Counted from the first letter of the stretch, positions 9,845 to 42,950 are shown. The stretch is 64,000 nucleotides of DNA from an uncultured bacterium (GCA_903850545.1 CAINLW010000009.1:2311-66310), one strand, 5' to 3'. Numbers and translations are program-made. Notes: a model not told the origin generated them from the sequence alone.

Positions 9845-10201
9845 CTATTTTTTATATTCTTTAACTTTTGCTTTTAATAATTTCACAGCGGAGTCATTTT
9901 TAAGTTTATTGCTTTCTAATAATCCATTGGCCAATCCTAAATAGTAATCTCTCATGTTATATTCATTTCCTTCAGCGGTTTTAACAACACTAGAATTATT
10001 AATATTCATAATGAGAAAAAGAACAGTTTCCATATCACTTTGATTTTCAGAGAGTTTTTTAAGCTCAATCCGTCTAATTTTTATTTCTTCTGATTCAGGG
10101 TTACTGCTATCTAAATTTGAAATGTTGTTTTCTGACATACAGTAAGTATAGCATGATTTAAATATATTTTGTGGATAATAAACTACCTCGGTGTAGAGCA
10201 C
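9845..10201 (-). CDS. Hypothetical protein
   Basis: 118-aa ORF. No recognisable motif. Confidence 0.35.
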   Translation of the reverse strand: MLYTEVVYYPQNIFKSCYTYCMSENNISNLDSSNPESEEIKIRRIELKKLSENQSDMETVLFLIMNINNSSVVKTAEGNEYNMRDYYLGLANGLLESNKLKNDSAVKLLKAKVKEYKK

Positions 10202-10336
10202 ACGAGGTATTCGTCATAATACTTCTGTCTTTGCGAGCGAAGCGTGGCAATCCAGGTTTGTACTGTATGTAGTTCTGGATTGCTTCGCTTCGCTCGCAAA
10301 GACGAAATACAAAACATTAACCGATGCAGAGCATCG
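10195..10336. repeat. Dispersed hairpin repeat, copy A
   Basis: agagcacacgaggtatt..gtctttgcgagcgaagcgtggcaatccag (10227-10255) / ctggattgcttcgcttcgctcgcaaagac (10275-10303)..accgatgcagagcatcg. A second near-identical copy sits at 42810-42950. Confidence 0.7.
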
Positions 10337-10372
10337 AGTAATATTAGGATTTAATCTACAAGATGTCTTTAC

Positions 10373-11206
10373 TTAATACATTAACAAGATTAAGCCCGCT
10401 ACCACAAAAGCAAATGAAACAATTTTTATTAATATATGCTTCTCGTGAAAAAATTTATTCCCGGATACAATAGAAGCAAGTACGGATGTTCCACGTTTAG
10501 CTCCGGTGATTACTGACGTTGGTGCGTATAGATAAGCCATACTCATAAAAACAGCAGCAAAACCTCTAGAAACTGATTGTAATAGAAACTTTTTATTAAA
10601 AACAAATCGAAGTGGATTTTCTTTAGATTTCCAAAAGGCCATTATAAAGAGAGCAACTAATAAAATTGAAATTTCTAGGAATTGTTGAGCTTCTACTGAA
10701 TTATAATTGGTAATTAGATATTTAAAGATTGAAATTGTAGCAACTGCATTAAAAGTACTAAACCATACGTATCTTATTCCTTTTTTACTTAGTCCATGAT
10801 TAATAAATAAAAATATAAGACTCAAAACAATAAAGCTTATTCCAATTAAATTAATAAATGATATTGAATATCCTAGAAAAATATCAACTACCAAAAGAAG
10901 GGGAATTGTACCAACCATCAAAAAACCGAATGTACTACGATCAGCTTCTGCAATAGCATGTAAAGAAGAATATATTTGAGCCCCATCTAACAATAATAGT
11001 AAAGTAAACAAGGGGATAGAAGCAGGATCAAAAATAAAATGACCTTTTATTAAAATAATGCACAAAAAAATAATTGCACCCCAAAAATAATTAAGGAATC
11101 CAAGTGTGTACAGACTCTCGATTTTATGATTTACATTCCATTTCCCGGCTGAAGATGAAACTTCATCAAGAATTGTTCCAATAACAACTAAAATTATTCC
11201 AAACAT
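10373..11206 (-). CDS. Multi-pass membrane protein, unknown function
   Basis: 277 aa. Repeated hydrophobic segments throughout. Confidence 0.45.
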   Translation of the reverse strand: MFGIILVVIGTILDEVSSSAGKWNVNHKIESLYTLGFLNYFWGAIIFLCIILIKGHFIFDPASIPLFTLLLLLDGAQIYSSLHAIAEADRSTFGFLMVGTIPLLLVVDIFLGYSISFINLIGISFIVLSLIFLFINHGLSKKGIRYVWFSTFNAVATISIFKYLITNYNSVEAQQFLEISILLVALFIMAFWKSKENPLRFVFNKKFLLQSVSRGFAAVFMSMAYLYAPTSVITGAKRGTSVLASIVSGNKFFHEKHILIKIVSFAFVVAGLILLMY

Positions 11207-11275
11207 ATCCTAGATTATACTATATATTTGAATATATGCTAAAATTTAACTGTAAATAGTTAATAAATATATTAG

Positions 11276-11839
11276 ATGAAAAGAAATATTAAATTAAATA
11301 ACGAAAATGTCCAATATCTTTTAAAAGAAAGCAAGTGCTCTCGAAGAATGAAACTCGCGGTGTATTGTGATGGAAGTTTTGTTGTAACAACTCCAAAAAA
11401 TATTGATCAGGGAGTAGTTGAAAAGTTTATTGTGGAAAAATCTCATTGGGTATTAGATAGATTAAGTTTTTTTAAAAATTCGAAAAAAATATTTTTTCCC
11501 AAAAGTACTAAAACTGAGTATACGAAACACAAACATACAGCAAAACAAATTGTTCAGCAAAAAATTGAAAAACTCAATTTAATATATAATTTTAAATTTA
11601 ATCGTGTAAGTATTAAAAATCAAAAAACTCGATGGGGAAGTTGTTCAAGTAAAGGCAACTTAAATTTTAATTATAAAATCGCATTAATTCCGGAAAATAT
11701 CGCGGAATATATCGTCGCTCATGAGCTTTGTCATCTTTATGAATTCAATCATTCACCAAAATTTTGGAGCTTAGTTGCAAAAACTATTCCAGATTATTTG
11801 AGTCTTAAGAAAAAACTAAAATCTTGTAGTTTTTATTAG
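11276..11839 (+). CDS. YgjP-like metal-dependent hydrolase (M48/DUF45 family)
   Basis: HExxH motif within IVAHELCHLYEFNHSPKFW near the C-terminus. Confidence 0.55.
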   Translation: MKRNIKLNNENVQYLLKESKCSRRMKLAVYCDGSFVVTTPKNIDQGVVEKFIVEKSHWVLDRLSFFKNSKKIFFPKSTKTEYTKHKHTAKQIVQQKIEKLNLIYNFKFNRVSIKNQKTRWGSCSSKGNLNFNYKIALIPENIAEYIVAHELCHLYEFNHSPKFWSLVAKTIPDYLSLKKKLKSCSFY

Positions 11840-13119
11840 GCTAAGTGCTTATTTTCCATTATTTGTTCAATAGAACTTCCTTTTTCATAAAACACCAAAT
11901 CACTGTTGTTATTTTTCCACATATTTTGTATCTCATCCAAAATTCTCCAGGTTTGTATTATTTCTTCGCTTGATGTAAATAGATTGTGGTCAGAGTTTAT
12001 CGCATTAAATAATACTTGTTCATATGCGTTTGGTAATTCTCCGTAGTATTCTTTAAACAAAAAATGAAGTTTGTGTTTACTGACCTGATGTTCGAGTCCT
12101 GGCTTTTTAGCCCATATACTAAACTCAATTCCAGCATCGGGCTGAACTCGCAATTGTAATTCATTTGATTCGTTTTCATCATCTTTTTTGTAACGGATTT
12201 TTATTACAGTAAATTCTTCTTTTAATGCTTTTCCAGTAGTTAATGTAATTGGAATACCCGCCAGTTTGCTGTCATTCGATTGTAGGTTTATGGAAACGAA
12301 AGTTTCAATCATACTTTTGAGATTGTTCACTTCGTTTCGATATCCTTTGTATTGGGCACGTTTTACGCATTCCTCATTTTTTATATTACATACAATATTG
12401 AGTTGTTTTAATGCTTGTAGACGACATTTTGGCACATCGTCAAGATTTTTTGGTAAATCCATTAATGCTAGCGACGCCAATTGTAAAAGATGACTTTGCA
12501 CTACATCACGCAGTGCGCCGGTTTGTTCATAAAAATTTACACGTCCTTCTATATCAATTTTTTCGCTAACTGTAATCTCTATGCTCTCAATAAAATCTTT
12601 ATTCCACGTTTTTTTGAATAATGAATTACCATTACGAAAAACGATCAAGTTCTGAGATATTTCCTTTGCCATATAATGGTCTACTCTATAAACTTGTTCA
12701 GATGAAAAATACTTATCTACATGTTTAACGAGGTCTTTAGCACTTGATAAATTGGTACCGAAAGGTTTTTCTAACAAAAGTTTATTGTTATTGTGTTTAA
12801 TTAAACTTGATTTACCGATAAGCTCAATTATATCCTTACATGCTTCGGGAGGAACGGCTAAATAAAATATTCTTTGAGTTGGTTCTTTAAATTCTTTTTC
12901 TATTTCATTCAAGTAGACATTTAATCTTTCGTAGTCTTCTTTGTCTGTAATGTCCATTTGAAAATAATCTGAATTTTTTTGGCGAGTCACACCAACAATT
13001 TGAAACTTGTTTGGAAGCATACCAGTTTTTGCAATGGCGTTAATTGCAGGCAAAAGATACCTCTGTGCCAAATCACCAGATACGCCAAAAATTATAAAAA
13101 TTGTAGGGATTTTGTTCAT
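11836..13119 (-). CDS. zwf: Glucose-6-phosphate 1-dehydrogenase
   Basis: N-terminal IFGVSGDLAQRYLLPA NADP-binding motif. RVDHYMAKE (the RIDHYLGKE motif). Confidence 0.8.
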   Translation of the reverse strand: MNKIPTIFIIFGVSGDLAQRYLLPAINAIAKTGMLPNKFQIVGVTRQKNSDYFQMDITDKEDYERLNVYLNEIEKEFKEPTQRIFYLAVPPEACKDIIELIGKSSLIKHNNNKLLLEKPFGTNLSSAKDLVKHVDKYFSSEQVYRVDHYMAKEISQNLIVFRNGNSLFKKTWNKDFIESIEITVSEKIDIEGRVNFYEQTGALRDVVQSHLLQLASLALMDLPKNLDDVPKCRLQALKQLNIVCNIKNEECVKRAQYKGYRNEVNNLKSMIETFVSINLQSNDSKLAGIPITLTTGKALKEEFTVIKIRYKKDDENESNELQLRVQPDAGIEFSIWAKKPGLEHQVSKHKLHFLFKEYYGELPNAYEQVLFNAINSDHNLFTSSEEIIQTWRILDEIQNMWKNNNSDLVFYEKGSSIEQIMENKHLA

Positions 13120-13234
13120 CCCAGTAGTAAAATTTTTAAGCTACTAATATTTATTTTTTTTATCATGATATATTCTAATATTATTACACAGTTGTTTATG
13201 TATTACTAGTTCGTAATTTACTACGGGACAAGTA

Positions 13235-14140
13235 TTAGTTTTTGTTTATTTTATGTCCACCAAAAGCATTGCGCATTGCAGCCAACAATTTGGTGGCAAA
13301 ATTAATTTTGCCTTTTTGAGATTTTACTCTCACATCAAATGCTGATTGCATGGCCGGTGTTTCAATTTTCAAACTTTTTGCTAGTTCAAGTGCCCAGCGA
13401 GCTTCTCCAGACTCAGCTACGAATCCTTCAACTCCTTTTAGGTTCGGATTTTCTTTCAAAACATCGCGACAAAGCTCATTGAGCCAAGAAGTTACAACAC
13501 TGTGATGTTGCCAAACGTCTCCCGCAGCAGCCAAATCGATATTTTTGTATGGCCCTTCTTTCAAAATTCTGTATCCTTCGGCCAATGACTCCATCATTCC
13601 GTATTCTATTGCGTTGTGTGTCATTTTAACAAAATGACCGGCACCACTTTCTCCAAAATGAAAATATGCACCTTCTGGTAAAGATAGTGTTTTTAAAACC
13701 GGTTCTATTATTTTATAAGATTTTTTATCACCGCCTGCCATCATTGAAAAACCATTTTTGTAGCCCCAAATTCCGCCACTGGTTCCAACATCCAAATAAT
13801 TTATTCCGAAAGAGGTTACTTTTTTTGCTCTCTTTTGTGTAAGTCGAAAATCTGAATTGCCTCCATCAATTATAATACTATTCTTTGGCAACAATTTTAT
13901 TAAGGTGTCTAATTCATTATCTACAGCCTCGGCTGGAATCATTAGCCAAATAATTATTCGATCTTTTTTAAATAACTTTACAATATCTTCTTTGGTATAA
14001 GCCGGTGTCATTCCCAAAGTAGCCATTTCGTCAATCGAATTTCGACTCCTATTATGAACTATAACCTTATGTTTTCCTTCATGAAGTTTTTTTGCGATCT
14101 GCATTCCCATTTTACCTAAACCAAAAATTGCTATTTTCAT
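13235..14140 (-). CDS. gnd: 6-phosphogluconate dehydrogenase, short NAD(P)-binding form
   Basis: MKIAIFGLGKMGMQIAKKL..HNRS Rossmann N-terminus. About 300-aa 6PGDH-like layout. Adjacent to zwf. Confidence 0.65.
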   Translation of the reverse strand: MKIAIFGLGKMGMQIAKKLHEGKHKVIVHNRSRNSIDEMATLGMTPAYTKEDIVKLFKKDRIIIWLMIPAEAVDNELDTLIKLLPKNSIIIDGGNSDFRLTQKRAKKVTSFGINYLDVGTSGGIWGYKNGFSMMAGGDKKSYKIIEPVLKTLSLPEGAYFHFGESGAGHFVKMTHNAIEYGMMESLAEGYRILKEGPYKNIDLAAAGDVWQHHSVVTSWLNELCRDVLKENPNLKGVEGFVAESGEARWALELAKSLKIETPAMQSAFDVRVKSQKGKINFATKLLAAMRNAFGGHKINKN

Positions 14141-14142
14141 AA

Positions 14143-14793: not shown

Positions 14794-14938
14794 GTGTTAA
14801 ATTTTTTATGTAAAAAAATTATTTTTAAATAATACTACAAAATACTAATATTAACTAATTAATTATTTATAAATAGATAGTAATACATTATCGCTTGAAT
14901 TAATTTGGTTTTTCTAGTATTCTTCATGAGTCAAACAT

Positions 14939-15012: not shown

Positions 15013-15086
15013 ACAAGTGATAGGTTCTCTCGCACGAGTTGCGTCGAACTATTTTTTTACAATAAAGAAGATAATAAAACCTAATT

Positions 15087-23253: not shown

Positions 23254-23922
23254 ATGACAGTGTATGATAAACCACAACCGAAATCAGATGCTCTTGATCA
23301 TATTCGTATAGCAGTAGCCTTGATTCCTACAGAGCCTCTTTTTTCTAATATTATTGAGGCCAGTCAAGCTATAACTCGCCAATTTCAGAATTTTAACATT
23401 ATTGATAAAAATGTTTTTCCTCCTCATGCGTGCCTACATATTTGCACCATATCCAAAGACAAATTGCCACATTTCCTAAAAATAATTAATCAATTGTCCA
23501 ATACAACTTTCCCAATTTTTGATCCATCTATACTAATCAAGGGATCAACGGGCTACATCTCTTTTCAATTAAATATTTCCCCATTGATTCGTTCACTTCA
23601 CGAGAGTGTGTTATCAGCCGCTTTGACTGTTCGGGGAGATGACTATCAGGAAGACCCCGCTCGTTTAGCTCGCCTTTCGGTAGCTGACAGATTGAGCTTT
23701 CAGAAATATGGCAATCGTTTTATCTTCGACAAGTTCAATTTACACATATCCATTGCAAAGGTTGCGCAAGAACATCAAGATGAGGCTTTTGAAATCGCCA
23801 AAACGATCTTAAGCACACCTAAGGCAACGCCCGCAGCTGCTATTCAAGTTTGCGACATCGGAATGCGGAGCGAAAAATGGATCGTTTTATATAGTAAGAA
23901 AATGCAGGGAAAACGTCATTAA
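23254..23922 (+). CDS. 2H-phosphoesterase-like (LigT-like) protein, tentative
   Basis: Two H-x-[ST/C]-x-like motifs about 100 aa apart (PHACLHICTI and NLHISIAKV). GC content above the local average. Confidence 0.3.
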   Translation: MTVYDKPQPKSDALDHIRIAVALIPTEPLFSNIIEASQAITRQFQNFNIIDKNVFPPHACLHICTISKDKLPHFLKIINQLSNTTFPIFDPSILIKGSTGYISFQLNISPLIRSLHESVLSAALTVRGDDYQEDPARLARLSVADRLSFQKYGNRFIFDKFNLHISIAKVAQEHQDEAFEIAKTILSTPKATPAAAIQVCDIGMRSEKWIVLYSKKMQGKRH

Positions 23923-25238
23923 TTTAAATATATAGTTTTATCTTTCAAACTTATTTTACTTTTTAAACATCCCAGTAGTTCTCTCTTTTCTATATCTTTT
24001 CCTTCTCTAAGAATATATTTCGCATAATTTTTAATATCTATATCGGCTATTAGTATTTTTTCATTATTTCCGAGTATCATGTGATTAAATTTTTTGATTT
24101 CTTCAACTTTCGCTTTTATCTTCTCTTTTATTCCAATTTCATCTATATCAATTTTTTCAATTAGGGTTTCAAATTGTTTTATTAGATCTATTTCGTTTAT
24201 ATAACCTCCTTTGCAATTCCTGTCTCTTACCCTGGTACAGCTATAATAGACATGCCTGTGAATATTGCCGTTTTTTTGTTTTTTAAACTTTTCATCTGCT
24301 GTAATTCCAGATCCACAAAGTCCACAAGTCATTAATTTGGTAAAAGCAAATTCCTTACTTTCTGATTTAATAATCTGACTTTTTACTTGATTTTGTACTT
24401 GATCAAACAGTTCTTTGGTAATAAGTGGTTCATGTTTACCCGTATAGAAATTTCCACTTTTTAGTGGATATTCGAAAACTCCATAATAATACGGGTTTCC
24501 TAAAAGTTGATATATATTTCCGAAACTTAATCCTTTGTTACTTTTTACACTTTTGAAATTAATCTCAAACTTCAACCAATTATAGATTTTGTGACCACTC
24601 CATTTCTCATACGCCACCTTTTCAAACATTTTCTTGATTACCGGAGCTCGTTGATGATCAATTACTACGTATCCTTTTCTATCAACCCTTTTTTCGTTCA
24701 AATATCCTACTGGTGGAGGTCCTGGTCTTAATCCCATTTCACATTTAGTTCTTAACCCACGTTTTACATTTACTGATTTATTATCATTTTCTAATTTTGC
24801 TTGAGAACATAAAATCATTAATAAGAACTTTTCGTTTGGTGAATTTATAAATGATTGTCCATAAGTTCTTATTTGTAAAAGTAGTTTCTGATCCATTAAA
24901 TCAACAAGTGATCCAAGATCGCCAGCGTTTCTAGAAAGCCTATCTGGTGCCCAAGTAAGTATTCCGTTAAATCTTTCTTTTCTTATATCTTCAAGTATTT
25001 CTTTAAATATGGGTCTTTGTCCTGAATCTTTAGCTGAATGAGACTCTCTCCTTATATCAATAATCTCAAGTCCTTCTTTTTCAGCCAGTTCAAGCATTTC
25101 TTTTACTTGGGATTCTATAGATAAGATTTGGCGCTCCTCAGATTCTGTACTTTTTCTAGCATATAAACAATATTTAATCTTTGCGGTTGGTATTACAACC
25201 CTTGTACCAATCAAAGCGTTTGTCGCCTGTATTTCCAT
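23919..25238 (-). CDS. Large serine recombinase (resolvase/invertase catalytic domain + recombinase domain + Zn-ribbon)
   Basis: YCLYARKSTESEERQ..SIESQ catalytic-serine region. C-terminal Cys pairs (CGLCGS..CTRVRDRNCKGG). Confidence 0.8.
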   Translation of the reverse strand: MEIQATNALIGTRVVIPTAKIKYCLYARKSTESEERQILSIESQVKEMLELAEKEGLEIIDIRRESHSAKDSGQRPIFKEILEDIRKERFNGILTWAPDRLSRNAGDLGSLVDLMDQKLLLQIRTYGQSFINSPNEKFLLMILCSQAKLENDNKSVNVKRGLRTKCEMGLRPGPPPVGYLNEKRVDRKGYVVIDHQRAPVIKKMFEKVAYEKWSGHKIYNWLKFEINFKSVKSNKGLSFGNIYQLLGNPYYYGVFEYPLKSGNFYTGKHEPLITKELFDQVQNQVKSQIIKSESKEFAFTKLMTCGLCGSGITADEKFKKQKNGNIHRHVYYSCTRVRDRNCKGGYINEIDLIKQFETLIEKIDIDEIGIKEKIKAKVEEIKKFNHMILGNNEKILIADIDIKNYAKYILREGKDIEKRELLGCLKSKISLKDKTIYLN

Positions 25239-25424
25239 GTATTAATGGTGTCAGAGATAGTGTCTTTTGCTAAGCGATAGCTTGTTGGCAACTTTTCTTA
25301 GCAGAATAACTAATTAGCGATATGATCAAGGTAGATTAATAATTTAAAAAGAGTTATTATGTGTAGGACAACTAAATAAGAAGTAGCCTAAACCAGTAGT
25401 AATACTGGCATGGTGAAAGTAAGT

Positions 25425-25510
25425 CCGTTGAAGATAAAAAACCCATCATGTGGGATTTGTCTTCAACGGCCGTATCTGGAAACAGGTATGGAGGGTTCAA
25501 ACCCTCACTC
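25425..25510 (+). other. Structured region upstream of the recombinase: a 10-bp perfect inverted repeat plus a tRNA T-arm-like hairpin; candidate attachment site
   Basis: ccgttgaaga..tcttcaacgg (25425-25469). gaggg-TTCAAAC-ccctc (25491-25506) fits the TPsiC arm consensus, but no complete tRNA could be folded. Confidence 0.3.
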
Positions 25511-25570
25511 ACGTGATGGGCTTTTTGTTTTTCATCACTGGGTTTTAATAACAATTAATAATCTAATGAT

Positions 25571-26206
25571 ATGAAAATTCTCAGAAATATTTTGGGTATA
25601 GGTATCGGTCTTGTTTCTATTGGTTTGTTATTTAGTAAACCAATTTCAGGTATCGTAGGTCTTATTTTTGCAATAAGCTTTTTACCAAAAACGTGGTCTT
25701 ATCTTTCTAAGAAATATAATTTAAATATTCCTAAGCTCTATAAAATATTAATCGTTGTTGTATTACTTTTTGTTTTCTTTAGTCTTTTACCTCAATCAGC
25801 ACCTCAAGTCCAAAATGTTATTAACAATGAAGCTAGTTCAACTACAAATATAATTGATAAAGAAAAAACACAAAGTCTAAATGGTGGTATTAAGTTTAGT
25901 CTTGATAAGGATTACGGATTCGGTGTCATCACTGTTACAAACAAAGATAGCTTTGATTGGAAAGATTGTGTCTTTTCAGTTCCTCTTGCAAAAACTAATC
26001 CTCTTACAATATTAAAAGGAGATTATATGCCTATAACAGCATCTGATTTCTTTAATGATCCTGAGTTTAATAATGGTGGAAAACAAATGACTATGGATGA
26101 TGGCACTTTCAGAAATATAGGAGGTGCTATTAATGTCCAGTGCAGTAATGGTCAAAGCTCAATTGATAATGTTGCTAAAAATTTTAGTAATATAACTGTA
26201 AAATAA
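25571..26206 (+). CDS. Secreted/membrane-anchored hypothetical protein
   Basis: N-terminal hydrophobic segments. Thr/Asn-rich. Confidence 0.4.
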   Translation: MKILRNILGIGIGLVSIGLLFSKPISGIVGLIFAISFLPKTWSYLSKKYNLNIPKLYKILIVVVLLFVFFSLLPQSAPQVQNVINNEASSTTNIIDKEKTQSLNGGIKFSLDKDYGFGVITVTNKDSFDWKDCVFSVPLAKTNPLTILKGDYMPITASDFFNDPEFNNGGKQMTMDDGTFRNIGGAINVQCSNGQSSIDNVAKNFSNITVK

Positions 26207-26210
26207 AATT

Positions 26211-26927
26211 ATGAAAAAAAAGATAATAGTTCTATCTTTCTTTTCACTCCTTATGATAGGGGGTGCTTCAACCGTATTCGCTATTTATGGTATCCAAACA
26301 AAAATAATTAATTGTGTCGCTAACCAAACTTTACAAGACCCTGCTTGCACTCCAGGAGCAGTTTTAACGACGAGTACAACTACAATTTGTAAAACTGGTT
26401 ATACAACAACGGTTCGTGACGTTTCAGTAGCTACCAAAAAGAAAGTTTTTAAGGAATATGGCATTGATTATTCTTTACATTCAAATTATGAAGTTGATCA
26501 TCTAATCAGCCTTGAGCTTGGAGGAAGTAATGATATATCGAATCTTTTTCCCGAGTCATATTTGATTAAAGATAATGCCAGAATAAAAGATAAACTAGAA
26601 AACTATTTGCATAGTAAAGTTTGCAGTGGAAAAATGTCTATCACCGAAGCTCAAAAAGAAATATCAACCAATTGGCTTTATTATTACGATCTTTATTACA
26701 ATGTAAAAGTCGCAACAACTTCAAAAAGCGTTTTACCTGCGACAACTACTTCTATTGTTCCCACCAAATCAATAGCCACATCTTCTACAAATTTTCCCTC
26801 AGTAAAGAAAAGTTTAACTGGTCTTTGCCATGCTTTAGGCACAAGATATTATACTCAGACTTTAAATTACACAGGTTACAATTCGATTGGCGCTTGTTTG
26901 GCAAGTGGAGGAAAATTACCGAAATAA
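26211..26927 (+). CDS. Secreted HNH-family nuclease
   Basis: Signal-peptide-like N-terminus. HNH signature YEVDHLISLELGGSNDISNLFPE. Confidence 0.6.
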   Translation: MKKKIIVLSFFSLLMIGGASTVFAIYGIQTKIINCVANQTLQDPACTPGAVLTTSTTTICKTGYTTTVRDVSVATKKKVFKEYGIDYSLHSNYEVDHLISLELGGSNDISNLFPESYLIKDNARIKDKLENYLHSKVCSGKMSITEAQKEISTNWLYYYDLYYNVKVATTSKSVLPATTTSIVPTKSIATSSTNFPSVKKSLTGLCHALGTRYYTQTLNYTGYNSIGACLASGGKLPK

Positions 26928-26928
26928 A

Positions 26929-28455
26929 TTATCTAAAAAACGGTTTCCAATTTGCTCCAGTAATACCCATAGCTTGGTCAAGATCACTCTCATTAGTATG
27001 ATGATTACTATGATAAATATAACTAATGGATGGTGTACTTTTTGAATCCTCAAACATTTGTAAGATAAGCATTGTCGTGGCGTCAACCAAATCGTCATGC
27101 TTTTCTTTTCCGAAACCCAATATTTGTTCCACTAACTCCTCATTACCTTTATCAGCAAAAACTACACGTCCAAGTTCAATTAAAGCAGAAACAGCCATAA
27201 GTCGATCCTCTTTACTCCAACCTCTTACTGGAAATGGTCTGGCTGGTATTCCCTCAGCCCTTAAGAGATCTGTGATAATTCCTTGGAAGTTTACATCTTC
27301 AACATACACTCGGGAATATGATCCATTATCAGGATTTCGTGAAAGACTTTTAACTCTGCTGATTATTTGGTCAGTAGTTAACCTCGCATTTACTGGATTT
27401 GGTAAAATGTACAATTTTCTATCTTTTCCTGAACCATAGATTTTACCCGAAACCATAGCTGTGTAATCTGCGCCAGCCTTTTGTGATCTTGCAGGGTCAA
27501 TTGAAAGAGCACTGAATCTTAGACTTACTCCAACAGGCAGTTCAGAATAGTGGTGAATATGTTCTCTCTTAATAATCTGATAATCGTTATCGACGATTCT
27601 TAACATATACTCTCTTTGCCAAGTTAGGTCACTAAAACATTTTGATTTTTCATCATCTATATCTTTTTGTGTTTTAAATTTGCCAGGCCAAAGTGGTACA
27701 TTATTTTCATCAATAATTGGAAATTTTCTGAAAACATTTCTTGGATCATTGTTTTGAAAGAATTTTTCCATTCTCATGAGTGTCGAATCGTTGTGCAAGG
27801 GCGTGCCGATGAAAACAAGTTGAGTGTTTCTTTCACCTGCGGGTATGACATCACCTGTTAGCCAGTCATACATTTTATCTCTGTTTTCTTGTGTTCGTAC
27901 TGAATCCGAATCTTCTATATCGTCAGCGATGATCAAGTCTGGTCTATGCTGAAAATGCCTTATACCTCGAATATTTTGCCCAATAGAGCGAGTTGAAATA
28001 TTAGCTCCATATTGAGGAAGAAGAATAGACTGTGTTCCTTCCTGATCGACTTCTTCTTTGAATGGTCCGAAGTCACGTCTAAAGTCATCATTTTCTTCCA
28101 ATTCCTTTTTTATATCGGTAAGGTGTATCTGAGTACTTAGTTGTGTGTGACCTAGAATAAGGATAAACTTTTTCTGCTTTACGCCGACAATTGACCAGAT
28201 GACATACGAAAGAGTGATAATGGTGCTTTTGGCGCTACCCCTAAAAGCGGTAATAACGATATTACGAAGATCAGGATTTTCCGTGAGGTTGAAAATTTCT
28301 CTGTGGAAATCCGCAGTTGGAAATTCTGCATACTTTCTACCGAAGTAATAATGGAAAAACCAATAATGGCTTTTCCTTACCATTGCTAGACGGAATGTTT
28401 TATCTTTAATCATCTGATCGATAATATATTCCTCACTAGGATTTAGGTTGTTCAT
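26929..28455 (-). CDS. Phage terminase large subunit
   Basis: ATPase motif ITAFRGSAKST. Terminase-like length and C-terminal nuclease-like region. Overlaps the upstream small subunit by 20 nt. Confidence 0.75.
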   Translation of the reverse strand: MNNLNPSEEYIIDQMIKDKTFRLAMVRKSHYWFFHYYFGRKYAEFPTADFHREIFNLTENPDLRNIVITAFRGSAKSTIITLSYVIWSIVGVKQKKFILILGHTQLSTQIHLTDIKKELEENDDFRRDFGPFKEEVDQEGTQSILLPQYGANISTRSIGQNIRGIRHFQHRPDLIIADDIEDSDSVRTQENRDKMYDWLTGDVIPAGERNTQLVFIGTPLHNDSTLMRMEKFFQNNDPRNVFRKFPIIDENNVPLWPGKFKTQKDIDDEKSKCFSDLTWQREYMLRIVDNDYQIIKREHIHHYSELPVGVSLRFSALSIDPARSQKAGADYTAMVSGKIYGSGKDRKLYILPNPVNARLTTDQIISRVKSLSRNPDNGSYSRVYVEDVNFQGIITDLLRAEGIPARPFPVRGWSKEDRLMAVSALIELGRVVFADKGNEELVEQILGFGKEKHDDLVDATTMLILQMFEDSKSTPSISYIYHSNHHTNESDLDQAMGITGANWKPFFR

Positions 28456-28846
28456 TTGAGTTTTGATTATTATTTGGTAATGCTAGACGGAGGGCTTCAC
28501 GAAGTAATTTTTCTTGCTCTGGATCGAGGATTTCTTTTTCGTTTTTTATCGTTCCTACTATCTCAACCTTTTCTTTGAATTTTGGATTTCGATGCCTTAA
28601 CCAAAAAGAAAGGGCATTCCAATTTTTTTCTTTTATAAGTGTGAGCAGTTGGCTTTCGGAAATGTCATTGATTAAGGCTTCACCGTCGGCTAATGCTTCT
28701 TCCATATCTTTTGCAAATTCCTTATCTGTATTTTTCCACCTATACAAGCTGACTCTAGATATTGCTACTTTTTCACAGGCAACCTCAATAATCGGAATTT
28801 TTCTTAACTCTACCAGAAACTGATTTTTTACTTTATTCTTTTTCAT
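28436..28846 (-). CDS. Phage terminase small subunit-like helix-turn-helix protein
   Basis: ISRVSLYRWKN helix-turn-helix. Position immediately upstream of the terminase large subunit. Confidence 0.45.
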   Translation of the reverse strand: MKKNKVKNQFLVELRKIPIIEVACEKVAISRVSLYRWKNTDKEFAKDMEEALADGEALINDISESQLLTLIKEKNWNALSFWLRHRNPKFKEKVEIVGTIKNEKEILDPEQEKLLREALRLALPNNNQNSNEQPKS

Positions 28847-30122
28847 AGTAGTTGTGAATTATTTTTGCTTGTTTTCCTGTGAGTTTTAAAAATCTTCTTA
28901 TGGCTAAGTCGATATATATTGGCTGAAGCTCTAGACCATAAACTTTTCTTCTGAGTTGCTCTGCCGAAATTAATGAGCTTGCGGACCCGAGGAAGCTATC
29001 TAATATAATATCTCCGACCTTTGTACATCTTCTGATAATTTTTGAATATAAATTCGTTGGTTTGGAAGTTGCATGTTCCATTTCTTTGCCAGATAATCTT
29101 CTAACCGCCCAGACGTTGAGACAATCAAGGACTTGATCAAACATATCGTTTCCAGTCGTCATGTCCCCATTCATTACCTCATTGAGATTTTGAATGTTTG
29201 GAGCGATATATGGATGACCTCGAAGCCCGTAGGTACAAGGTTCATAGCACTTTGAAAAAGCAATACCTGGGGTCGGGTTTTGTGACTGCTTCAACCATAG
29301 ACACACTCTTTTGTTTTGTATTCCAAAACTTCTATATAATTCTTGTATAAAACCAATATAGATTTGGTCTGAAAAATAAAAGAAATTAACATCATACTTA
29401 GATACAGATAATGCTCCTGCCATGCTTTTTCTAAGGAATTCTTTATATTCAGTGTCGGTTCTATTATCGAGGACTTCACCGCCATAATTTTTTGATCCAC
29501 CTAATCCAGATTTGTAGTTATAATTTATATTGTAGATTGGATCTGAACATACCATTGACGCTTTTTCTTTTCCGAAAAGTTTTTTAACAGCCTCAGCATC
29601 CGTGCTATCTGCACACAAAATTTTATGATCTCCTAATATGACGAGATCACCAAGTTTTGTTTGTGGAATTTTAATTTTGGCTAACTCAATTTTTTCGTCA
29701 AAGTTATCATCCTCAGTTTTTAACTCATCTCCCCAAACTTTTGAAAGATCTATATCACTTAAACCAATGTCAGACAGCAAATCCATCTTAAAATCTTTTA
29801 ATTTTTCAAAATTCCATTGCCCATCATTTAAATTACTTTCGAGACCAATTTTTCTTCTTTCGTCTTCAGAAAGTTTGCGACTTGGGACAAGCACATTAAC
29901 CTCTTTTATCTTTAATTTCATAAGCGCAACCTTCCTTTGGTTGCCAGATAAAATTGTGTTATCTGCATCAATAACAATTACAGCATGAAAACCATGCTGT
30001 TTAATTCTATCCACTAGTCTAGCCATGTCCGGTTTTGTAATCCTGCGAGGATTCGCTTTCCAAACGACTAGTTCTTCGACCTTCCTAACTTCTGCGTGCC
30101 AAACTAATTTTTGTTGAGACAT
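28833..30122 (-). CDS. ParB-like nuclease domain fused to a DNA methyltransferase (N4/N6 type)
   Basis: N-terminal ParB-like region. SDPIYN (DPPY-like) and ILDSFLGSASS (SAM-binding) motifs. Confidence 0.65.
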   Translation of the reverse strand: MSQQKLVWHAEVRKVEELVVWKANPRRITKPDMARLVDRIKQHGFHAVIVIDADNTILSGNQRKVALMKLKIKEVNVLVPSRKLSEDERRKIGLESNLNDGQWNFEKLKDFKMDLLSDIGLSDIDLSKVWGDELKTEDDNFDEKIELAKIKIPQTKLGDLVILGDHKILCADSTDAEAVKKLFGKEKASMVCSDPIYNINYNYKSGLGGSKNYGGEVLDNRTDTEYKEFLRKSMAGALSVSKYDVNFFYFSDQIYIGFIQELYRSFGIQNKRVCLWLKQSQNPTPGIAFSKCYEPCTYGLRGHPYIAPNIQNLNEVMNGDMTTGNDMFDQVLDCLNVWAVRRLSGKEMEHATSKPTNLYSKIIRRCTKVGDIILDSFLGSASSLISAEQLRRKVYGLELQPIYIDLAIRRFLKLTGKQAKIIHNYYEKE

Positions 30123-34898: not shown

Positions 34899-34899
34899 A

Positions 34900-37441: not shown

Positions 37442-37443
37442 TT

Positions 37444-38079: not shown

Positions 38080-38137
38080 ACAAAAATTATCAAGAAAATT
38101 ATCAAGGCAAGGCCTTAATAATTCTTGAATACAGAAT

Positions 38138-38180
38138 CAAACCTGGATTGCCACGTCGAATTACCTCCTCGCAATGACAC
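38138..38180. repeat. Partial copy (right half) of the dispersed hairpin repeat
   Basis: aaacctggattgccacgtcg..cctcgcaatgaca resembles aaacctggattgcttcg..cctcgcaaagaca of copies A/B. Confidence 0.4.
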
Positions 38181-38183
38181 AGA

Positions 38184-38220
38184 ACAAAAATATTCGTTAA
38201 AGCGAATATTTTTGTTTTTA
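38184..38220 (+). terminator. Rho-independent terminator after the MBL-fold gene
   Basis: Perfect 13-bp stem acaaaaatattcg/cgaatatttttgt, loop ttaaag, T-rich tail. Confidence 0.55.
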
Positions 38221-38310
38221 TGGGAGTAAGCTCGTTTCGGCTAGTAATATTCACGGCATTTTGATGTTTAATCTATTGTTATAAATATTGTATAATCATA
38301 TTTATAATAT

Positions 38311-39747
38311 ATGAATAATAAAAACCAACAATCTGTAATTTTCTCCTGCAGTCATATTTCTAAAAAATTTGAATTGATAGAGGTCTTGAATGATATATCT
38401 TTTACTATATCTAAAAATGAAAAAGTTGGACTGGTTGGCCCCAATGGATCAGGAAAAAGCACGCTACTAAAAATAATCGCAAATTTGATGGAAAAAGATG
38501 GTGGTGTCGTCTCATATTCAAAACAAGTAAAGATTAAGTATCTTTCCCAAATCCACTTAGAAGAAGAAAAACTTAGTGGTGGGGAAATTGCAAAAAAAAT
38601 TCTTTTACCAATAATTTTATCAGATGCGGATTTATATATTTTAGATGAGCCGACAAACAATTTAGATACTGATGGTTTGTTTATGCTCGAAAATTTTATT
38701 AGTAAAAGCAGTAAAGCTTTTTTAATAATTTCACACGATAGAGCCTTTTTGGATAAAATTGTAACTAAAATTATAGAGATTGATGTTGTAACAAAATCAT
38801 CATCAATATATGCTGGAAATTATTCTGATTTCATAAAAGAACGAAAATTAAAAATTGAAAGACAATGGAAAGAATACGACGATAAAGTTGAAAAAACTGA
38901 AAAAATAAAGACTAATGTAAATTTACGTTCTGCTTGGTTAAAAAGAGTCGAATTAGAGAAAAATAGCGCAAAAAATCTACCAATTCACGAAAGAGAAAAG
39001 AAACCTTTAGATTTTCGCAATCCAGATGGAAAATCAGCTAAGCGCTTAAAAGTAATGAAAGACAGACTCGAGAGATACGAAAGCAATTCAAAAAACGTCA
39101 CAAAACCAAAATATAATTTACCACTTAAAATATGTTTTAAAAATGAACGGGGAAGTACAAGTGTTTTTGATTTAAAAATGGTAGAAAAGAAAATTGGCAG
39201 AAGAAAAATAGGACCTATTAATCTTCATATCCAGTATGGCGACAGAATCCATATCATTGGAAAAAATGGAACAGGAAAAACAACATTAATAAAAATGGTT
39301 GTCGGCGAATTGAAAGTTGATTCAGGAATTGTAAAACGAGGTGAAAATGTGGTTGTAGGATATATTCCACAAGAAAAATGGTTGGACAGACCAAATAATA
39401 AAGTTATATCTGAATTCTTAGACGTTACAAAAATATCAGAGACAAATGCTAGAAAAATTTTAAACAGGTTTAGAATAACTACTGAGGACGTAAATAAGCA
39501 CATTTCGTTAATTAGCCCTGGTGAATATTCAAGACTAATTATTGCGGAACTTATTGCAACAAATCCAAATTGTATAATTCTAGATGAACCAAGTAATCAT
39601 CTTGATCTTGAGGTTATTGAGGAATTAGAAAACGGACTTAGGGAATATAAAGGAACCCTTATCGTTGTAAGCCATGATAGATATTTCGTAGAAAAACTAA
39701 AACTTAATAAAGTTATCGATTTAGATAATAATTCAAAAAAAATATAG
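38311..39747 (+). CDS. ABC-F family ATPase (two tandem ABC domains, no transmembrane domain)
   Basis: Walker A GPNGSGKST and GKNGTGKTT. Signatures LSGGE / SPGE. Walker B ILDEPTNNLD / ILDEPSNHLD. Confidence 0.8.
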   Translation: MNNKNQQSVIFSCSHISKKFELIEVLNDISFTISKNEKVGLVGPNGSGKSTLLKIIANLMEKDGGVVSYSKQVKIKYLSQIHLEEEKLSGGEIAKKILLPIILSDADLYILDEPTNNLDTDGLFMLENFISKSSKAFLIISHDRAFLDKIVTKIIEIDVVTKSSSIYAGNYSDFIKERKLKIERQWKEYDDKVEKTEKIKTNVNLRSAWLKRVELEKNSAKNLPIHEREKKPLDFRNPDGKSAKRLKVMKDRLERYESNSKNVTKPKYNLPLKICFKNERGSTSVFDLKMVEKKIGRRKIGPINLHIQYGDRIHIIGKNGTGKTTLIKMVVGELKVDSGIVKRGENVVVGYIPQEKWLDRPNNKVISEFLDVTKISETNARKILNRFRITTEDVNKHISLISPGEYSRLIIAELIATNPNCIILDEPSNHLDLEVIEELENGLREYKGTLIVVSHDRYFVEKLKLNKVIDLDNNSKKI

Positions 39748-39786
39748 AAATAATTTCGCCATATTTTTATCTTTTATTATAATCAA

Positions 39787-40035
39787 ATGTATTACCTCTA
39801 TATTCTTAAATGCGCTGATAAAACCCTATATACTGGAATTACAACAGATTTGAAAAGAAGAATTTTTGAACATAATAATACAAAACTTGGTTCAAAATAT
39901 ACTTCTTCTCGAAGACCGGTAAAAATTGTTTACTTTAGAAAATATAAAAATAGATCACTTGCTTCAATAGATGAGGCTAGGATTAAAAAATTAACAAGGA
40001 AAGAAAAAACCAAGTTAATAAATAAGAAATTGTAG
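39787..40035 (+). CDS. GIY-YIG nuclease-domain small protein
   Basis: YYLYILKCADKTLYTGITTDLKRRIFEH. Confidence 0.65.
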   Translation: MYYLYILKCADKTLYTGITTDLKRRIFEHNNTKLGSKYTSSRRPVKIVYFRKYKNRSLASIDEARIKKLTRKEKTKLINKKL

Positions 40036-40108
40036 TTTTGTGTATTTCGCCACGTTGATAATAGTTACGTTACGTGCTACTTTTCTTCATGAACGTTTTG
40101 GGAGGAAA

Positions 40109-40382
40109 AATGAATATAATAGTTAAAGCGGTAACAAATGTCGGTATGAAAGTCACAGGAAAAAGGACTAACAAGCTACCGAAGATTCCGCAAGGGTGCG
40201 GGTTGGTTGCTGTAATACACAAAGGGTCCGAAGATGTGTTAGAAGACGTGACATATTTAGCAAAATATATGGGTTGTCACATAAAGGACTGCTGCGGAAC
40301 ACACAGGATGGACCTATACATTCTGTCACATTATCAGATGCGGTTGTGTGGTATAGGGCCATGCCAACACAGCAAGAGGTAG
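40109..40382 (+). CDS. Cysteine-rich 91-aa ORF in a GC-rich segment
   Basis: GGGAGG 6 nt before ATG. 8 Cys including CCGTH and CGIGPC. The terminator-like hairpin cgcgcc..ggcgcg lies 34-66 nt downstream. Confidence 0.3.
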
Positions 40383-40459
40383 TTGAGTCACCTAGAAGTA
40401 CTCGTGATCGTCGCGCCTGTATTTTAAGGCGCGGCGATTATTTTTTTATATTTTCTGAT

Positions 40460-40493
40460 AACATTCCGACATTCTGCAGAATGTCGGAATGTT
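40460..40493. promoter_or_regulatory. Perfect 34-bp palindrome 50 nt upstream of the U32 peptidase start; candidate operator
   Basis: aacattccgacattctg|cagaatgtcggaatgtt centred on CTGCAG. Confidence 0.5.
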
Positions 40494-40543
40494 ACTTTAA
40501 ATTAGCCTTTCTTTTATTCAAATATAATGATAAAAATATACTA

Positions 40544-41776
40544 ATGGCAAAATTAACAAACAAACCTGAGTTACTTTCACCAGTACAAGATTTTACATCA
40601 CTAACAGCAGCAATAGAAAATGGTGCCGATGCTGTTTTTTTTGGTATCAAAGGCTTTAATATGCGCGCTGGGGCAAAAAACTTCACTGTAAGTGATTTAC
40701 ATAAAATCGCAAAAACTGCTCACAAAAGTAATGTAAAAACTTATCTAGCTATAAATACTATTATTTTTGAAAATGAACTAAAAGAAGTTGAGAAAATTTT
40801 AATTAAAGTTAAAAAAGCCAAAATAGACGCTATTATCTGCTGGGATTTTGCAATTATACAAATTGCAAAGAAGTTAAAAATTGAAATTCATATTAGCACT
40901 CAAGCAAGTATTGCAAATTCGGAGACGGCAGAATTTTATCAGAAACTTGGTGCGACAAGAGTGGTACTAGCACGCGAGTGTTCACTTGAACAAATTAAAG
41001 AAATAAAGAAAAACACGAATGTTGAAATAGAAATCTTTATTCATGGTGCAATGTGCGTATCTGTTTCTGGAAGATGTTTTATGTCACAATTTTTGTATGG
41101 TAAATCAGCAAATCGAGGTGAATGCTTACAACCCTGCAGAAGAAAATATATTATTAAACAAATTGATGGAGGTGCTGAACTAGAACTTGGTGAAAATTAT
41201 GTCCTTAGTCCAAAGGATTTATGTACAATTGATTTTATAGAAAAAATAATTGATGTTGGCGTAAACTGCTTAAAAATTGAAGGAAGAAACAGAAGTCCTG
41301 AATATGTAGCAACAGTTACTAAAGCCTATCGAACAATTATTGATTTTATTTATTCAGCTAAAGTACGTGACGATAAATTCAAACAGGAATTAAAAAATCT
41401 AAAAAACAAATTATTCGAAGATTTGAATACTGTATATCATCGAGGTAGTAGCAGTGGTTTTTTCCTTGGAAAACCTATTAATGAGTGGACAAAAGATCCT
41501 GAAAGCCAGGCGACTCAAAAGAAAGTATATATTGGAAAAGTTTCAAACTATTATAAAAAAATTGGTGCAATTGAAACAACTATTCAAACAAATAATACAA
41601 TTAGAATTGGTGATACACTTATTATTCAAGGGCCCACAACTGGAAGCATAAAAGAAAAAATTATATCAATTGAAAAAAATCATTTACCTACCAAAATGGC
41701 AAAAAAGGGCGAAAAGATTGCATTTGGAATCAAATCTCTCGTTAGACAAAATGATCAGATATATTTAATTAAATAG
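40544..41776 (+). CDS. U32-family peptidase (collagenase-like / RlhA-TrhP family)
   Basis: Listed ORF trimmed to MAKLTNKPELLSPVQDF. E-x-F-x-H-G-A-M-C-x-S-x-S-G-R-C motif region IFIHGAMCVSVSGRCFMS. Confidence 0.75.
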   Translation: MAKLTNKPELLSPVQDFTSLTAAIENGADAVFFGIKGFNMRAGAKNFTVSDLHKIAKTAHKSNVKTYLAINTIIFENELKEVEKILIKVKKAKIDAIICWDFAIIQIAKKLKIEIHISTQASIANSETAEFYQKLGATRVVLARECSLEQIKEIKKNTNVEIEIFIHGAMCVSVSGRCFMSQFLYGKSANRGECLQPCRRKYIIKQIDGGAELELGENYVLSPKDLCTIDFIEKIIDVGVNCLKIEGRNRSPEYVATVTKAYRTIIDFIYSAKVRDDKFKQELKNLKNKLFEDLNTVYHRGSSSGFFLGKPINEWTKDPESQATQKKVYIGKVSNYYKKIGAIETTIQTNNTIRIGDTLIIQGPTTGSIKEKIISIEKNHLPTKMAKKGEKIAFGIKSLVRQNDQIYLIK

Positions 41777-41838
41777 TCACTGTCATAAATAGTAATAATT
41801 TGATAAAATAGACATACTGTTTTTATAATTATCAATAT

Positions 41839-42711
41839 ATGAAAGTCGAAGCAATACGTGAATACTTGGAAAAATTTAATCAAAATATTTACACCTCTGG
41901 TGAAACTGAATTTTGCTTTGCTCGAGATCTACAAGGATTGCTTGGATATAAAGACTGGAATAATTTCTTGAATGTTATAGGAAAAGCAAAAACTGCTTGC
42001 AACCATTCTGGAATTGATGTTGAGAAAAATTTTAATCCAACCGTCAGACTTGTGAATATTTCTACAAATGGTAGTAAAGATGTTGATGATTTTCTTTTGA
42101 CTAGATATGCTTGTTATTTAATTGCACAAAACGGAGATTCTTCAAAAGAACAAGTTGCTTTTGCAATGAGTTATTTTGCTGTTCAAGCTAGAAAACAAGA
42201 AATTTTAGTAAAGAAACTTGAAGAGTTTGAAAGATTGCAAGCGAGAAAAAAATTAGGCGAAACAGAAAAGCAATTATCCGGAGTTGTTTATGAAAGAGGG
42301 GTTGATGGCGGAGGATTTGCTGTCATTCGAAGCAGTGGAGATGAGGCATTGTTTGGGGGGAAAACTACCGCTGAAATGAAAAATAAATACAAAATTCCTC
42401 AATCAAGAGCATTGGCCGATTTTTTACCAACCATAACAATAAAAGCAAAAGAGTTCGCTGACGAAATTACTGTATTTAATGTAAAGAAAAGTGGGGGAAT
42501 GCGCGGAATAAATAGCATAAAAGAAGAGCATGTTAGAAATAATAGAGACGTGAGAGATCTTTTAAAAAACAGAGGGATTGTCCCAGAAAATTTGCCTCCG
42601 GAAGAAGATTTACAAAAAGTACAAAGAAGAATAAACTCTCAAGAAAAAGTTATTTTAAAAGAAGTAAAGGAAAATCCGGATCATCAAACAGACCAAACGG
42701 TACTAAATTAG
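41839..42711 (+). CDS. Hypothetical protein, possibly DinD/antirepressor-like
   Basis: 290 aa. Weak resemblance only. Confidence 0.3.
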   Translation: MKVEAIREYLEKFNQNIYTSGETEFCFARDLQGLLGYKDWNNFLNVIGKAKTACNHSGIDVEKNFNPTVRLVNISTNGSKDVDDFLLTRYACYLIAQNGDSSKEQVAFAMSYFAVQARKQEILVKKLEEFERLQARKKLGETEKQLSGVVYERGVDGGGFAVIRSSGDEALFGGKTTAEMKNKYKIPQSRALADFLPTITIKAKEFADEITVFNVKKSGGMRGINSIKEEHVRNNRDVRDLLKNRGIVPENLPPEEDLQKVQRRINSQEKVILKEVKENPDHQTDQTVLN

Positions 42712-42809
42712 TAATTGATAAAATTAAAATAAATGTTCTAGTATGAAATATAACGTATGAAATGATGTAGATCAACAAAATCTGCAATTATTATTAAATA
42801 CTTCAATAC

Positions 42810-42950
42810 AGAGCACACGAGGTATTAGCTATTATTATTTCTGTCTTTGCGAGCAAAGCGAAGCAATCCAGAATTACATACAATACAAACCTGGATTGCT
42901 TCGTGCCTCGCAAAGACAATACATAGAAGGTGGACCGATGCAGAGCATCG
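42810..42950. repeat. Dispersed hairpin repeat, copy B
   Basis: agagcacacgaggtatt..gtctttgcgagcaaagcgaagcaatccag (42843-42871) / ctggattgcttcgtgcctcgcaaagac (42891-42917)..accgatgcagagcatcg. Same orientation as copy A. The loop sequence differs. Confidence 0.7.

Follow-up and report, generated by a model that had tools for sequence, protein, structure and literature searches.

Two copies of an intergenic element

The DNA analysed here (the window: 64,000 nucleotides from an uncultured bacterium, GCA_903850545.1 CAINLW010000009.1:2311-66310) has a GC content of 33%, and for the proteins that neighbour the copies described below, the closest named relatives come from Candidatus Paceibacterota, Moranbacteria, Minisyncoccia and Taylorbacteria. 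The window carries two full copies, A and B, of an element with a long hairpin core. This element is probably an intergenic mosaic DNA repeat of about 175 bp in a genome of the Patescibacteria (candidate phyla radiation, CPR), similar to repetitive extragenic palindromic (REP) sequences and Neisseria intergenic mosaic elements (NIMEs). Copy A spans roughly 10177-10349 (plus strand) between the open reading frame (ORF) 9845-10138 (minus strand) and the stop of ORF 10373-11206 (minus strand), while copy B spans roughly 42792-42962 (plus strand) between the convergent genes 41839-42711 (plus strand) and 42963-43850 (minus strand). Both are intergenic, each sitting between ORFs, as an earlier reading of the sequence alone (the sequence-only reading) had noted.

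As delimited by an alignment of five full copies, copy A begins with AATAAAC and ends with GAGTAATATTAGG. Its 5' module (10184-10209, plus strand) is a small hairpin with the arms TACCTCGGTG and CACACGAGGTA around the loop TAGAG, and the 5' box AGAGCACACGAGGTATT (10195-10211) corresponds to the loop plus the 3' arm of this hairpin. The core follows, consisting of a forward left unit GTCTTTGCGAGCGAAGCGTGGCAATCCAG (10227-10255, plus strand), the loop GTTTGTACTGTATGTAGTT (10256-10274), which stands in the same 'flip' orientation as in L171 and L173 (L numbers designate loci outside the window), and a right unit in reverse orientation (10275-10303, minus strand), which reads GTCTTTGCGAGCGAAGCGAAGCAATCCAG on the minus strand. 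The 3' box ACCGATGCAGAGCATCG (10320-10336, plus strand) is, as had been proposed, palindromic in itself (CGATGC-AGA-GCATCG). In copy B the same 5' box lies at 42810-42826 and the same 3' box at 42934-42950 (plus strand), and the hairpin core between them (42843-42917, minus strand; units 42843-42871 and 42891-42917, loop 42872-42890) is inverted as a whole relative to copy A.

The five full copies become similar at AATAAAC, 18 nt ahead of the 5' box (AATAAACTACCTCGGTGY), and remain so past the 3' box up to GGAATAKCTAA, where the similarity stops abruptly; the length of about 175 bp taken from this extent replaces the earlier estimate of about 140 bp. Outside the element the DNA of the two copies is not homologous, so they do not represent a segmental duplication, in line with the sequence-only reading, which had argued against simple duplication. 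Both boxes lie where that reading had located them and, with up to three mismatches allowed, have no match in the window beyond the two copies each (chance expectation 0.04 for the 5' box and 0.02 for the 3' box). The arms take the form GTC(A/T)TTGCGAG…GCAATCCAG, and the arm core CTGGATTGCYWCG occurs five times in the window against an expectation of 0.11. With stems of 29 bp, the hairpins fold as RNA at -72 kcal/mol (copy A; z = -9.7) and -57 kcal/mol (copy B; z = -8.3), and the inverted pairs folded as DNA reach z = -11 and -9.

A solitary long-arm unit of 36 nt, GTCATTGCGAGGAGGTAATTCGACGTGGCAATCCAG, is found at 38143-38178 (minus strand), with a remnant of the AGAAYACAAAA spacer and no boxes, and shares its arm type with the long arms of L174, L178, L184 and L187. 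It had been described as a partial right-half copy at 38138-38180 just before a terminator; the arm is indeed present and a terminator-like hairpin follows it, but its exact form is that of a single long arm on the minus strand.

The hairpin core lies in either orientation between fixed boxes

Compared forward, the loops of copies A and B agree at only 6 of 19 positions, but 17 of the 19 agree when one of them is reverse-complemented. The whole hairpins behave likewise, with 75% identity forward and 90% reversed, and the slight asymmetry of the arms inverts along with the loop. The reverse complement of loop B matches the loop of L171, from another genome, at all 19 positions. Since loop and hairpin match only when reversed, only the boxes share their orientation in A and B, and the claim that the two copies lie in the same orientation therefore holds for the boxes and fails for the hairpin core. 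Similarly, the loop that had been called non-conserved is conserved but inverted, and the arms diverge without compensation, which removes the basis of the earlier argument that conserved arms around a diverging loop point to selection on structure. A second, independent flip, in Taylorbacteria-like copies, separates L178 and L174 from L184 and L187; the long and short arms of these copies are very different, and 55 bases match over the first 57-60 nt upon reversal.

The palindromic core is thus a self-contained module that stands in either orientation between fixed boxes. Its loop is conserved at 17-19 of 19 positions and the AT-rich linkers at roughly half of theirs, as would be the case if the hairpin module had arisen later than the boxes or been homogenised independently of them. 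Minute inversions of hairpin loops in non-coding DNA have reportedly been seen in, for example, chloroplast spacers, and both these and the flip-flop palindromes at the termini of parvoviruses resemble the present case in that one palindrome occurs in two orientations relative to fixed flanks. They differ from it in that the element inverts the whole asymmetric palindrome including the arms, and that no role in priming replication is indicated.

Further copies and lineage specificity

When one genome from each of 185,579 species was searched for the 5' box 17-mer, four real matches were obtained, all in metagenome-assembled genomes (MAGs) of CPR bacteria (two in MFD01476.bin.2.188 and two in a Ca. 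Taylorbacteria MAG) and all followed by a forward unit. A metagenome scan yielded five more copies, all in one low-GC sample set. The dispersed family suggested by the sequence-only reading thus extends, by about eight further copies, to unrelated loci in related CPR genomes and in metagenomes.

Across ten copies the constant part comprises the 5' module and a forward unit, the 5' box invariably lying 10-16 nt upstream of this unit, and the remainder is variable. Some copies carry an inverted pair in either orientation, L184 has a mismatched long and short arm without a loop, and in L181 and L188 units of one orientation are arrayed in tandem, a reverse arm lying at a distance. The hairpin of L178 carries an insert of about 105 nt, while in L174 a transposase of the IS110 family, which is RNA-guided, is inserted in the hairpin loop (121-1176, locus coordinates), L178 being the unfilled version. 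Only about half of the copies have the 3' box.

Both boxes are specific to the CPR lineage, and the fixed distance between 5' box and first unit is, together with the documented flip-flop, a new feature of such repeats; the two offer handles on how repeats of this kind are copied. The 5' box has no match in IMG/VR. Of the 3' box, 47 matches were obtained in that database, each within coding sequence that is rich in GC and has no hairpin close by, and they were rejected as due to chance. Downstream of a tRNA gene, L216 has an 11-nt match to the 5' box that the orthologous site of the window does not share, and this was likewise dropped as chance. Full-text literature searches with the arm sequences, and with the spurious peptides they encode, returned unrelated primers or nothing. 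In practical terms, spurious ORFs arise from the element, which may also break assemblies and is best masked in annotation.

The nearest relatives outside the strain, with an M23 peptidase that is about 70% identical and with partly conserved gene order, have neither the element nor its arms in 17 kb, from which it follows that the element is dispensable and lineage-specific. The neighbour gene differs in these relatives, and no precise insertion boundary is apparent. At two different loci, L184 (630-660) and L174 (reverse strand), a perfect palindrome of 20-22 bp, AGATACACCATG(G/T)TGTATCT, lies directly upstream of the element; it could be an operator or another repeat.

The arms resemble the NTS and SRM repeats

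In the literature, the related core GTCATTCCCGC led to Chenal et al. 2025 (Nat Commun; PMC11893778). In Neisseria, the repeat NTS (CGTCATTCCCGCGMAVGCGGGAATCYRG), an extension of the recombinase target dRS3, is bound and cut as single-stranded DNA (ssDNA) by the 94-aa GIY-YIG nuclease SsnA, whose action is limited to one strand and falls a few nucleotides upstream of the repeat (PMC11893778). Cleavage of the NTS is controlled by GTC, the three bases that precede the stem, binding depends most on the C that follows it, and Ssn-related motifs (SRMs) flank ssn genes across phyla (PMC11893778).

The flanks of the arms were assessed on 245 arms anchored on TTGCRAG...GCAATC only, with the flanking bases left unimposed. 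Upstream, C, G, T, C and A occur in 78, 96, 95, 96 and 92% of them, respectively, and downstream C, A and G occur in 94, 92 and 86%. These CGTCA and C-CAG flanks equal those of the NTS consensus, and at frequencies of 78-96% they imply that the arms share every NTS position outside the GC-rich core. The arms in the window read GTC(A/T)TT...AATCCAG and have NTS-like ends, the stem starting with ATT and ending with AAT. Moreover, units of the TTGCGAG type and of the canonical NTS type stand side by side in L181 and L188, in the same orientation, 7-8 nt apart and behind the same 5' box. Canonical SRMs (published degenerate pattern HGTCWYN(0-2)YYVSBRHN(0-5)WNVSBRGN(0-2)RNCYNB) are enriched near the composite copies (7 against 0.05 expected in 45 kb) and in the viral loci listed (30 against 6.4 expected).

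Judged from these sequence features, the arms are probably a variant of the NTS/dRS3/SRM hairpin repeats. The likeness includes unit ends that are identical (on the 5' side (C)GTCATT, on the 3' side AATC-CAG) and hold the positions by which cleavage and binding of the NTS are controlled, oriented units of 27-36 nt that often form inverted pairs, intergenic dispersal across phyla, and co-occurrence and interleaving with canonical NTS-type units. The differences are that the core of the element's units reads TTGCGAG...GC where that of the NTS is a GC-rich palindrome, that the arms come in two size classes and so make an asymmetric hairpin, and that no Ssn gene was found beside the TTGCGAG-type hairpins examined. 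The layout as inverted pairs is common to the element and to the surroundings of ssnA in N. gonorrhoeae, where nine NTS in 6 kb are arranged as plus/minus pairs, though the spacers are longer there.

Within the window, one canonical unit, TGTCATCCTCGCGGATGCGGGGATCCAG at 62165-62192 (minus strand), matches the SRM pattern (0.05 expected by shuffling) and folds on its own (z = -2.2). It appears to belong to an inverted pair of canonical SRM-type units (GTCATCCTCGCGGATGCGGGGATCCAG) at 62019-62192, the probable left partner (62019-62137, plus strand) being disrupted, apparently split by a GC-rich insert of about 100 nt with a hairpin of its own (TTGAAGTTGGG/CCCAACTTCAA).

Arms of the element's type are widespread. 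The arm pattern CTGGATTGCTTCG-N2-12-CTCGCAAWGAC matched at least 120 IMG/VR contigs, and the loci listed there contain at least 222 arms and at least 69 inverted pairs at contig GC contents of 0.30-0.73. The typical pair among the listed loci joins a 35-nt and a 29-nt arm (by the arm definition used here), in either order, around a loop of 16-18 nt. The pattern also occurs on megaplasmid-sized replicons of Novosphingobium, Methylosinus and Methylobacterium, at no fewer than 40 places on one Novosphingobium replicon. In the listed viral loci the hairpins lie mostly between structural genes of phages or gene transfer agents (GTAs), and the genes recurring near hairpins in the 120 loci are phage or GTA structural genes only, with no nuclease or transposase among them. 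The idea that arms enclose cargo genes, such as four-helix-bundle or rRNA intervening-sequence genes, was not supported, since the 69 listed pairs have loops of 2-59 nt and only four long interiors were seen.

These repeats define a new 'split-stem' TTGCGAG class, which has NTS ends, is missed by the SRM pattern and is conserved from Alphaproteobacteria to CPR bacteria. It is the inverted pair, and not the single arm, that makes the hairpin. The GTCATTGCGAG...GCAATCCAG pairs, very abundant and spread across phyla, share the functional ends of the NTS but escape the published pattern, so that censuses of SRMs may undercount. The similarity also ties a hairpin repeat in a CPR genome of ultra-small size to the NTS/Ssn system, described recently, with which Neisseria restricts single-stranded DNA that enters from outside; CPR bacteria are presumed to depend on DNA uptake.

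A probable mosaic DNA repeat and its possible nuclease

The explanation that we consider probable is that of a REP/NIME-like mosaic repeat with a core of two inverted units, each 27-36 nt long and built as (C)GTC-(A/T)TTGCGAG...GCAAT-CCAG. Such a pair would behave like a REPIN or NIME unit and form its long hairpin only in single-stranded DNA, with the loop as a likely hot spot for further insertions; the IS110-family insertion in the loop of L174 parallels dRS3 and REP sequences, which IS110/Piv-type recombinases likewise target. An enzyme specific for structure and sequence may recognise the units on single strands exposed during replication or DNA uptake. By analogy, this could be an Ssn-type GIY-YIG ssDNA nuclease nicking a few nucleotides 5' of GTC and, because the units are inverted, the nick sites would bracket the pair on opposite strands, thereby offering a route to copying, inversion or loss of the core. 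What the sequences show is the relationship of the arms to this family, their dispersal, the flip and the constant place of the 5' box with respect to a forward unit; recognition by a nuclease, the identity of that enzyme and any influence on neighbouring genes are inferred. That an Ssn-type nuclease is the acting enzyme is suggested by this analogy and is a serious possibility, albeit one to which we give less than even weight.

REPINs, and the related bacterial interspersed mosaic elements (BIMEs), are reportedly REP doublets mobilised by Y1 transposases of the REP-associated tyrosine transposase (RAYT) type. The element resembles them in consisting of two inverted short repeats and a spacer that make a long ssDNA hairpin, and in being non-autonomous, intergenic, present in either orientation, arranged in mosaic clusters and a hot spot for insertion sequence (IS) elements. 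The arms accordingly share with REPs and REPINs an inverted doublet that forms a hairpin and many dispersed intergenic copies (69 pairs in the listed loci). They differ in that, in the part of the genome covered, no RAYT or Y1 transposase turned up in a scan of 37 window ORFs (27 of them against Pfam, the other 10 against NCBIfam only) or in the ORF clusters recurring near hairpins in the 120 listed loci, in that the 5' signature is GTC and not the GTAG-type tetranucleotide of REP sequences, and in that REP sequences are species-specific whereas the element's arm is conserved from Alphaproteobacteria to CPR bacteria. NIMEs are said to be repeat segments bracketed by inverted dRS3. Like them, the element is an intergenic mosaic of inverted hairpin units and other short conserved segments, and both are targets of IS110/Piv-type recombinases (dRS3 in Neisseria, L174 here). 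Its boxes, however, lie outside the inverted pair and not between the units, and its spacer measures about 19 nt compared with 50-150 nt in Neisseria.

The window encodes a candidate for a hairpin-specific ssDNA nuclease, an 82-aa single-domain GIY-YIG protein (39787-40035, plus strand; Pfam PF01541, E = 2.8e-15), with arms 1.6 kb upstream and 2.8 kb downstream of its gene. Several results nevertheless weigh against the explanation given above and weaken this protein as a candidate. Its best solved relatives are UPF0213 proteins (E = 2.4e-15), a family that SsnA itself barely matches (E = 0.1), and it is 32% identical to N. gonorrhoeae SsnA. No SRM-like motif was found in the immediate flanks of the gene, and six loci of CPR GIY-YIG homologues with 74-80% identity contain a single SRM in 114 kb. 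Among the 120 listed viral loci, no Ssn gene was found adjoining TTGCGAG-type hairpins except for one Ssn-like pseudogene, which, like its intact relatives, is flanked by a different hairpin, CGTCGGCCCGGG...; a Sphingobium Ssn homologue is flanked by CGTCACCCCGGG... As for the arms, none of the five TTGCGAG-type arms in the window matches the SRM pattern, which only the unit at 62165-62192 does, and single arms do not outfold shuffled sequences (z = -0.5 to +0.3, compared with -3.2 for the NTS), so that the defining NTS property of a self-folding unit is absent. With respect to movement, copy B is identical and in a single orientation in four independent assemblies of the strain, and ongoing flipping is therefore not seen; the loci with an identical GIY-YIG protein or a 99% variant of it (L192-L197, L214 and L215) likewise derive from the same strain and show the same orientation. 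No target-site duplication is evident at the hairpin boundaries or the outer, box-to-box boundaries, although such duplications had been proposed as a feature to look for, and no orthologous empty site was recovered among the relatives examined, making the whole composite a putative mobile unit at most.

In a bolder version of the explanation, the module TACCTCGGTG-YAGAG-CACACGAGGTA would be the anchor of a CPR-specific hairpin-handling system. It would position a site-specific ssDNA enzyme, possibly the UPF0213-like GIY-YIG protein that is highly conserved in CPR bacteria and looks in L216 like a mobile cassette itself, and this enzyme would be one that inserts, inverts or excises units 10-16 nt downstream of the box, and the flip-flop would then be an active, programmable rearrangement. 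We regard this version as a long shot; if true, the TTGCGAG hairpin would define a second, 'split-stem' class of Ssn-type substrates.

Two observations concern the nuclease genes themselves. Alphaproteobacterial Ssn-like genes (L204-L209 and L213), whose products are 47% identical to N. gonorrhoeae SsnA, are bracketed by inverted hairpins of their own (CGTCGGCCCGGGCTTGACCCGGGCC... or CGTCACCCCGGGCTTGACCCGGGGTCCCG) and illustrate lineage-specific pairs of nuclease and motif. In L216 (12800-13270), a homologue of the GIY-YIG gene at 39787-40035, coding for 80 aa, has a duplicated 5' fragment of a tRNA gene on one side and the intact tRNA gene on the other, and a second GIY-YIG gene is divergent from it. 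This context suggests that CPR GIY-YIG genes are themselves mobile cassettes.

Alternative explanations

The element could instead be a structured RNA, either a small RNA gene or a module of 3' untranslated regions or bidirectional terminators between gene ends, with three hairpins that terminate transcription, stabilise mRNA or undergo RNase III processing. Its tight packing against gene ends agrees with this: in L173 and L178 the upstream gene takes its stop codon from the TAA within AATAAAC, and in A, B, L171 and L184 the converging gene ends lie at -9 to +15 nt from the 3' end of the element as defined. So do the very strong RNA folding of the hairpins and, as read from the alignment, a complementarity present in all full copies between GTATT, which closes the 5' box, and AATAC immediately downstream of the hairpin. 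On the minus strand, copy A's 3' box also scores as a terminator-like structure for gene 10373-11206, but copy B lacks a terminator-like tail and half of the copies lack the 3' box altogether. In the 5' hairpin, 92.5% of cells are paired in eight copies, and the changes, three in number, are one-sided and preserve G-U pairs on the plus strand; none of its 10 pairs has changed on both sides, though this is a weak test, the 3' arm being fixed by the search pattern, and compensatory changes between the arms, for which a test had been proposed, were not found either. The arms of the core diverge without compensation, for example with 5 of 29 positions mismatched in L171, and the 3' hairpin gains mismatches in L171 and L173. 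The flip alters both loop and bulge strand in any transcript; L181 and L188 carry, in place of the core, arrays of units in one orientation that are unable to form the hairpin; and it is the arm sequence, not merely the structure, that is conserved across phyla. Rfam returned no family at gathering or permissive E-value thresholds, only generic miRNA-hairpin noise, and promoter-like sites are lacking at copy A and do not exceed shuffle expectation at copy B. With no compensatory changes, no Rfam family and no promoter, an RNA gene is unsupported, and the small RNA family put forward by the sequence-only reading is not borne out. We thus consider the structured RNA unlikely and action at the DNA level most likely. 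An RNA-level role could coexist as a side effect, and a barrier or terminator effect between convergent genes, through which the neighbouring genes might be influenced, is possible as a by-product.

Among explanations based on mobility, the miniature inverted-repeat transposable element (MITE), in which the arms would be the terminal inverted repeats of a DDE transposon of the cut-and-paste kind, itself supplied in trans, would account for the near-perfect 29-bp inverted arms, the short AT-rich interior and the dispersed intergenic copies. The missing target-site duplications speak against it, and so does the behaviour of the arms, which also occur solo (38143-38178) and in tandem direct arrays, typically form asymmetric pairs of a long and a short arm in either order, and have ends equal to those of the NTS. 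None of the 37 window ORFs scanned proved to be a transposase with matching ends, and the IS110-family transposase of L174, the only one seen, represents an insertion into the element and not its parent. A MITE is thus very unlikely, and of the earlier suggestion of a MITE-like or REP-like element only the REP-like dispersed family stands. More subtly, the 5' box region may be a fixed landing pad into which units insert repeatedly and independently of one another, in either orientation, the composite itself being immobile. The constant 5' module and forward unit fit this, as does the variable content downstream of them (inverted pairs, mismatched arms, tandem arrays and nested inserts), and the better conservation of the loop relative to the linkers would be expected if the hairpin is younger than the boxes. 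A parallel has been reported in Pseudomonas, where REP arrays sit in a constant position downstream of TwoAYGGAY RNA motifs (bioRxiv 10.64898/2026.09.22.753630). The boxes are, however, themselves dispersed to unrelated loci, and hence something must move or duplicate them too, and with about ten copies in-place inversion and independent insertion are indistinguishable. We find the landing pad improbable as an account of its own, and it is a refinement of the mosaic DNA repeat, not a true alternative to it. Finally, only two full copies in 64 kb might reflect chance similarity or a segmental duplication of one locus; this has a negligible probability and is refuted by the two exact 17-mers that occur twice each where 0.02-0.04 are expected, by the non-homologous flanks, and by the copies at unrelated loci in other genomes.

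Other features of the window

The segment 40036-40445, between the GIY-YIG gene and a U32 peptidase gene, appears by eye to have a G+C content above that of its AT-rich surroundings. At its end stands a clean terminator (40407-40438, with a T-run), after which follows a perfect palindrome of 36 bp (40459-40494), and one gene caller predicts a 90-aa ORF in the segment. An assignment as an RNase P-like RNA was rejected, there being no Rfam support.

A large serine recombinase is encoded at 23919-25238, followed by a LOOT RNA at 25385-25506 (85.6 bits), a weak terminase-like ORF at 26929-28455 and an N6/N4 DNA methylase at 28833-30122, with many ORFs without a Pfam match nearby. The region 23919-30122, perhaps reaching to about 37.4 kb, is probably an integrated phage-like element.

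A GC-rich palindrome of 18 bp, CCTGCCTGCGCAGGCAGG, is found at 56374-56398 and 60599-60623, inside dnaG and an ORF with a DUF2779 domain, in frame in both (DLPAQAG). The same palindrome splits the duplicated 5' fragment of the tRNA gene in L216 (about 12850-12880), from a related genome, and it has the look of a very small mobile insert, palindromic and tolerated within coding sequence.

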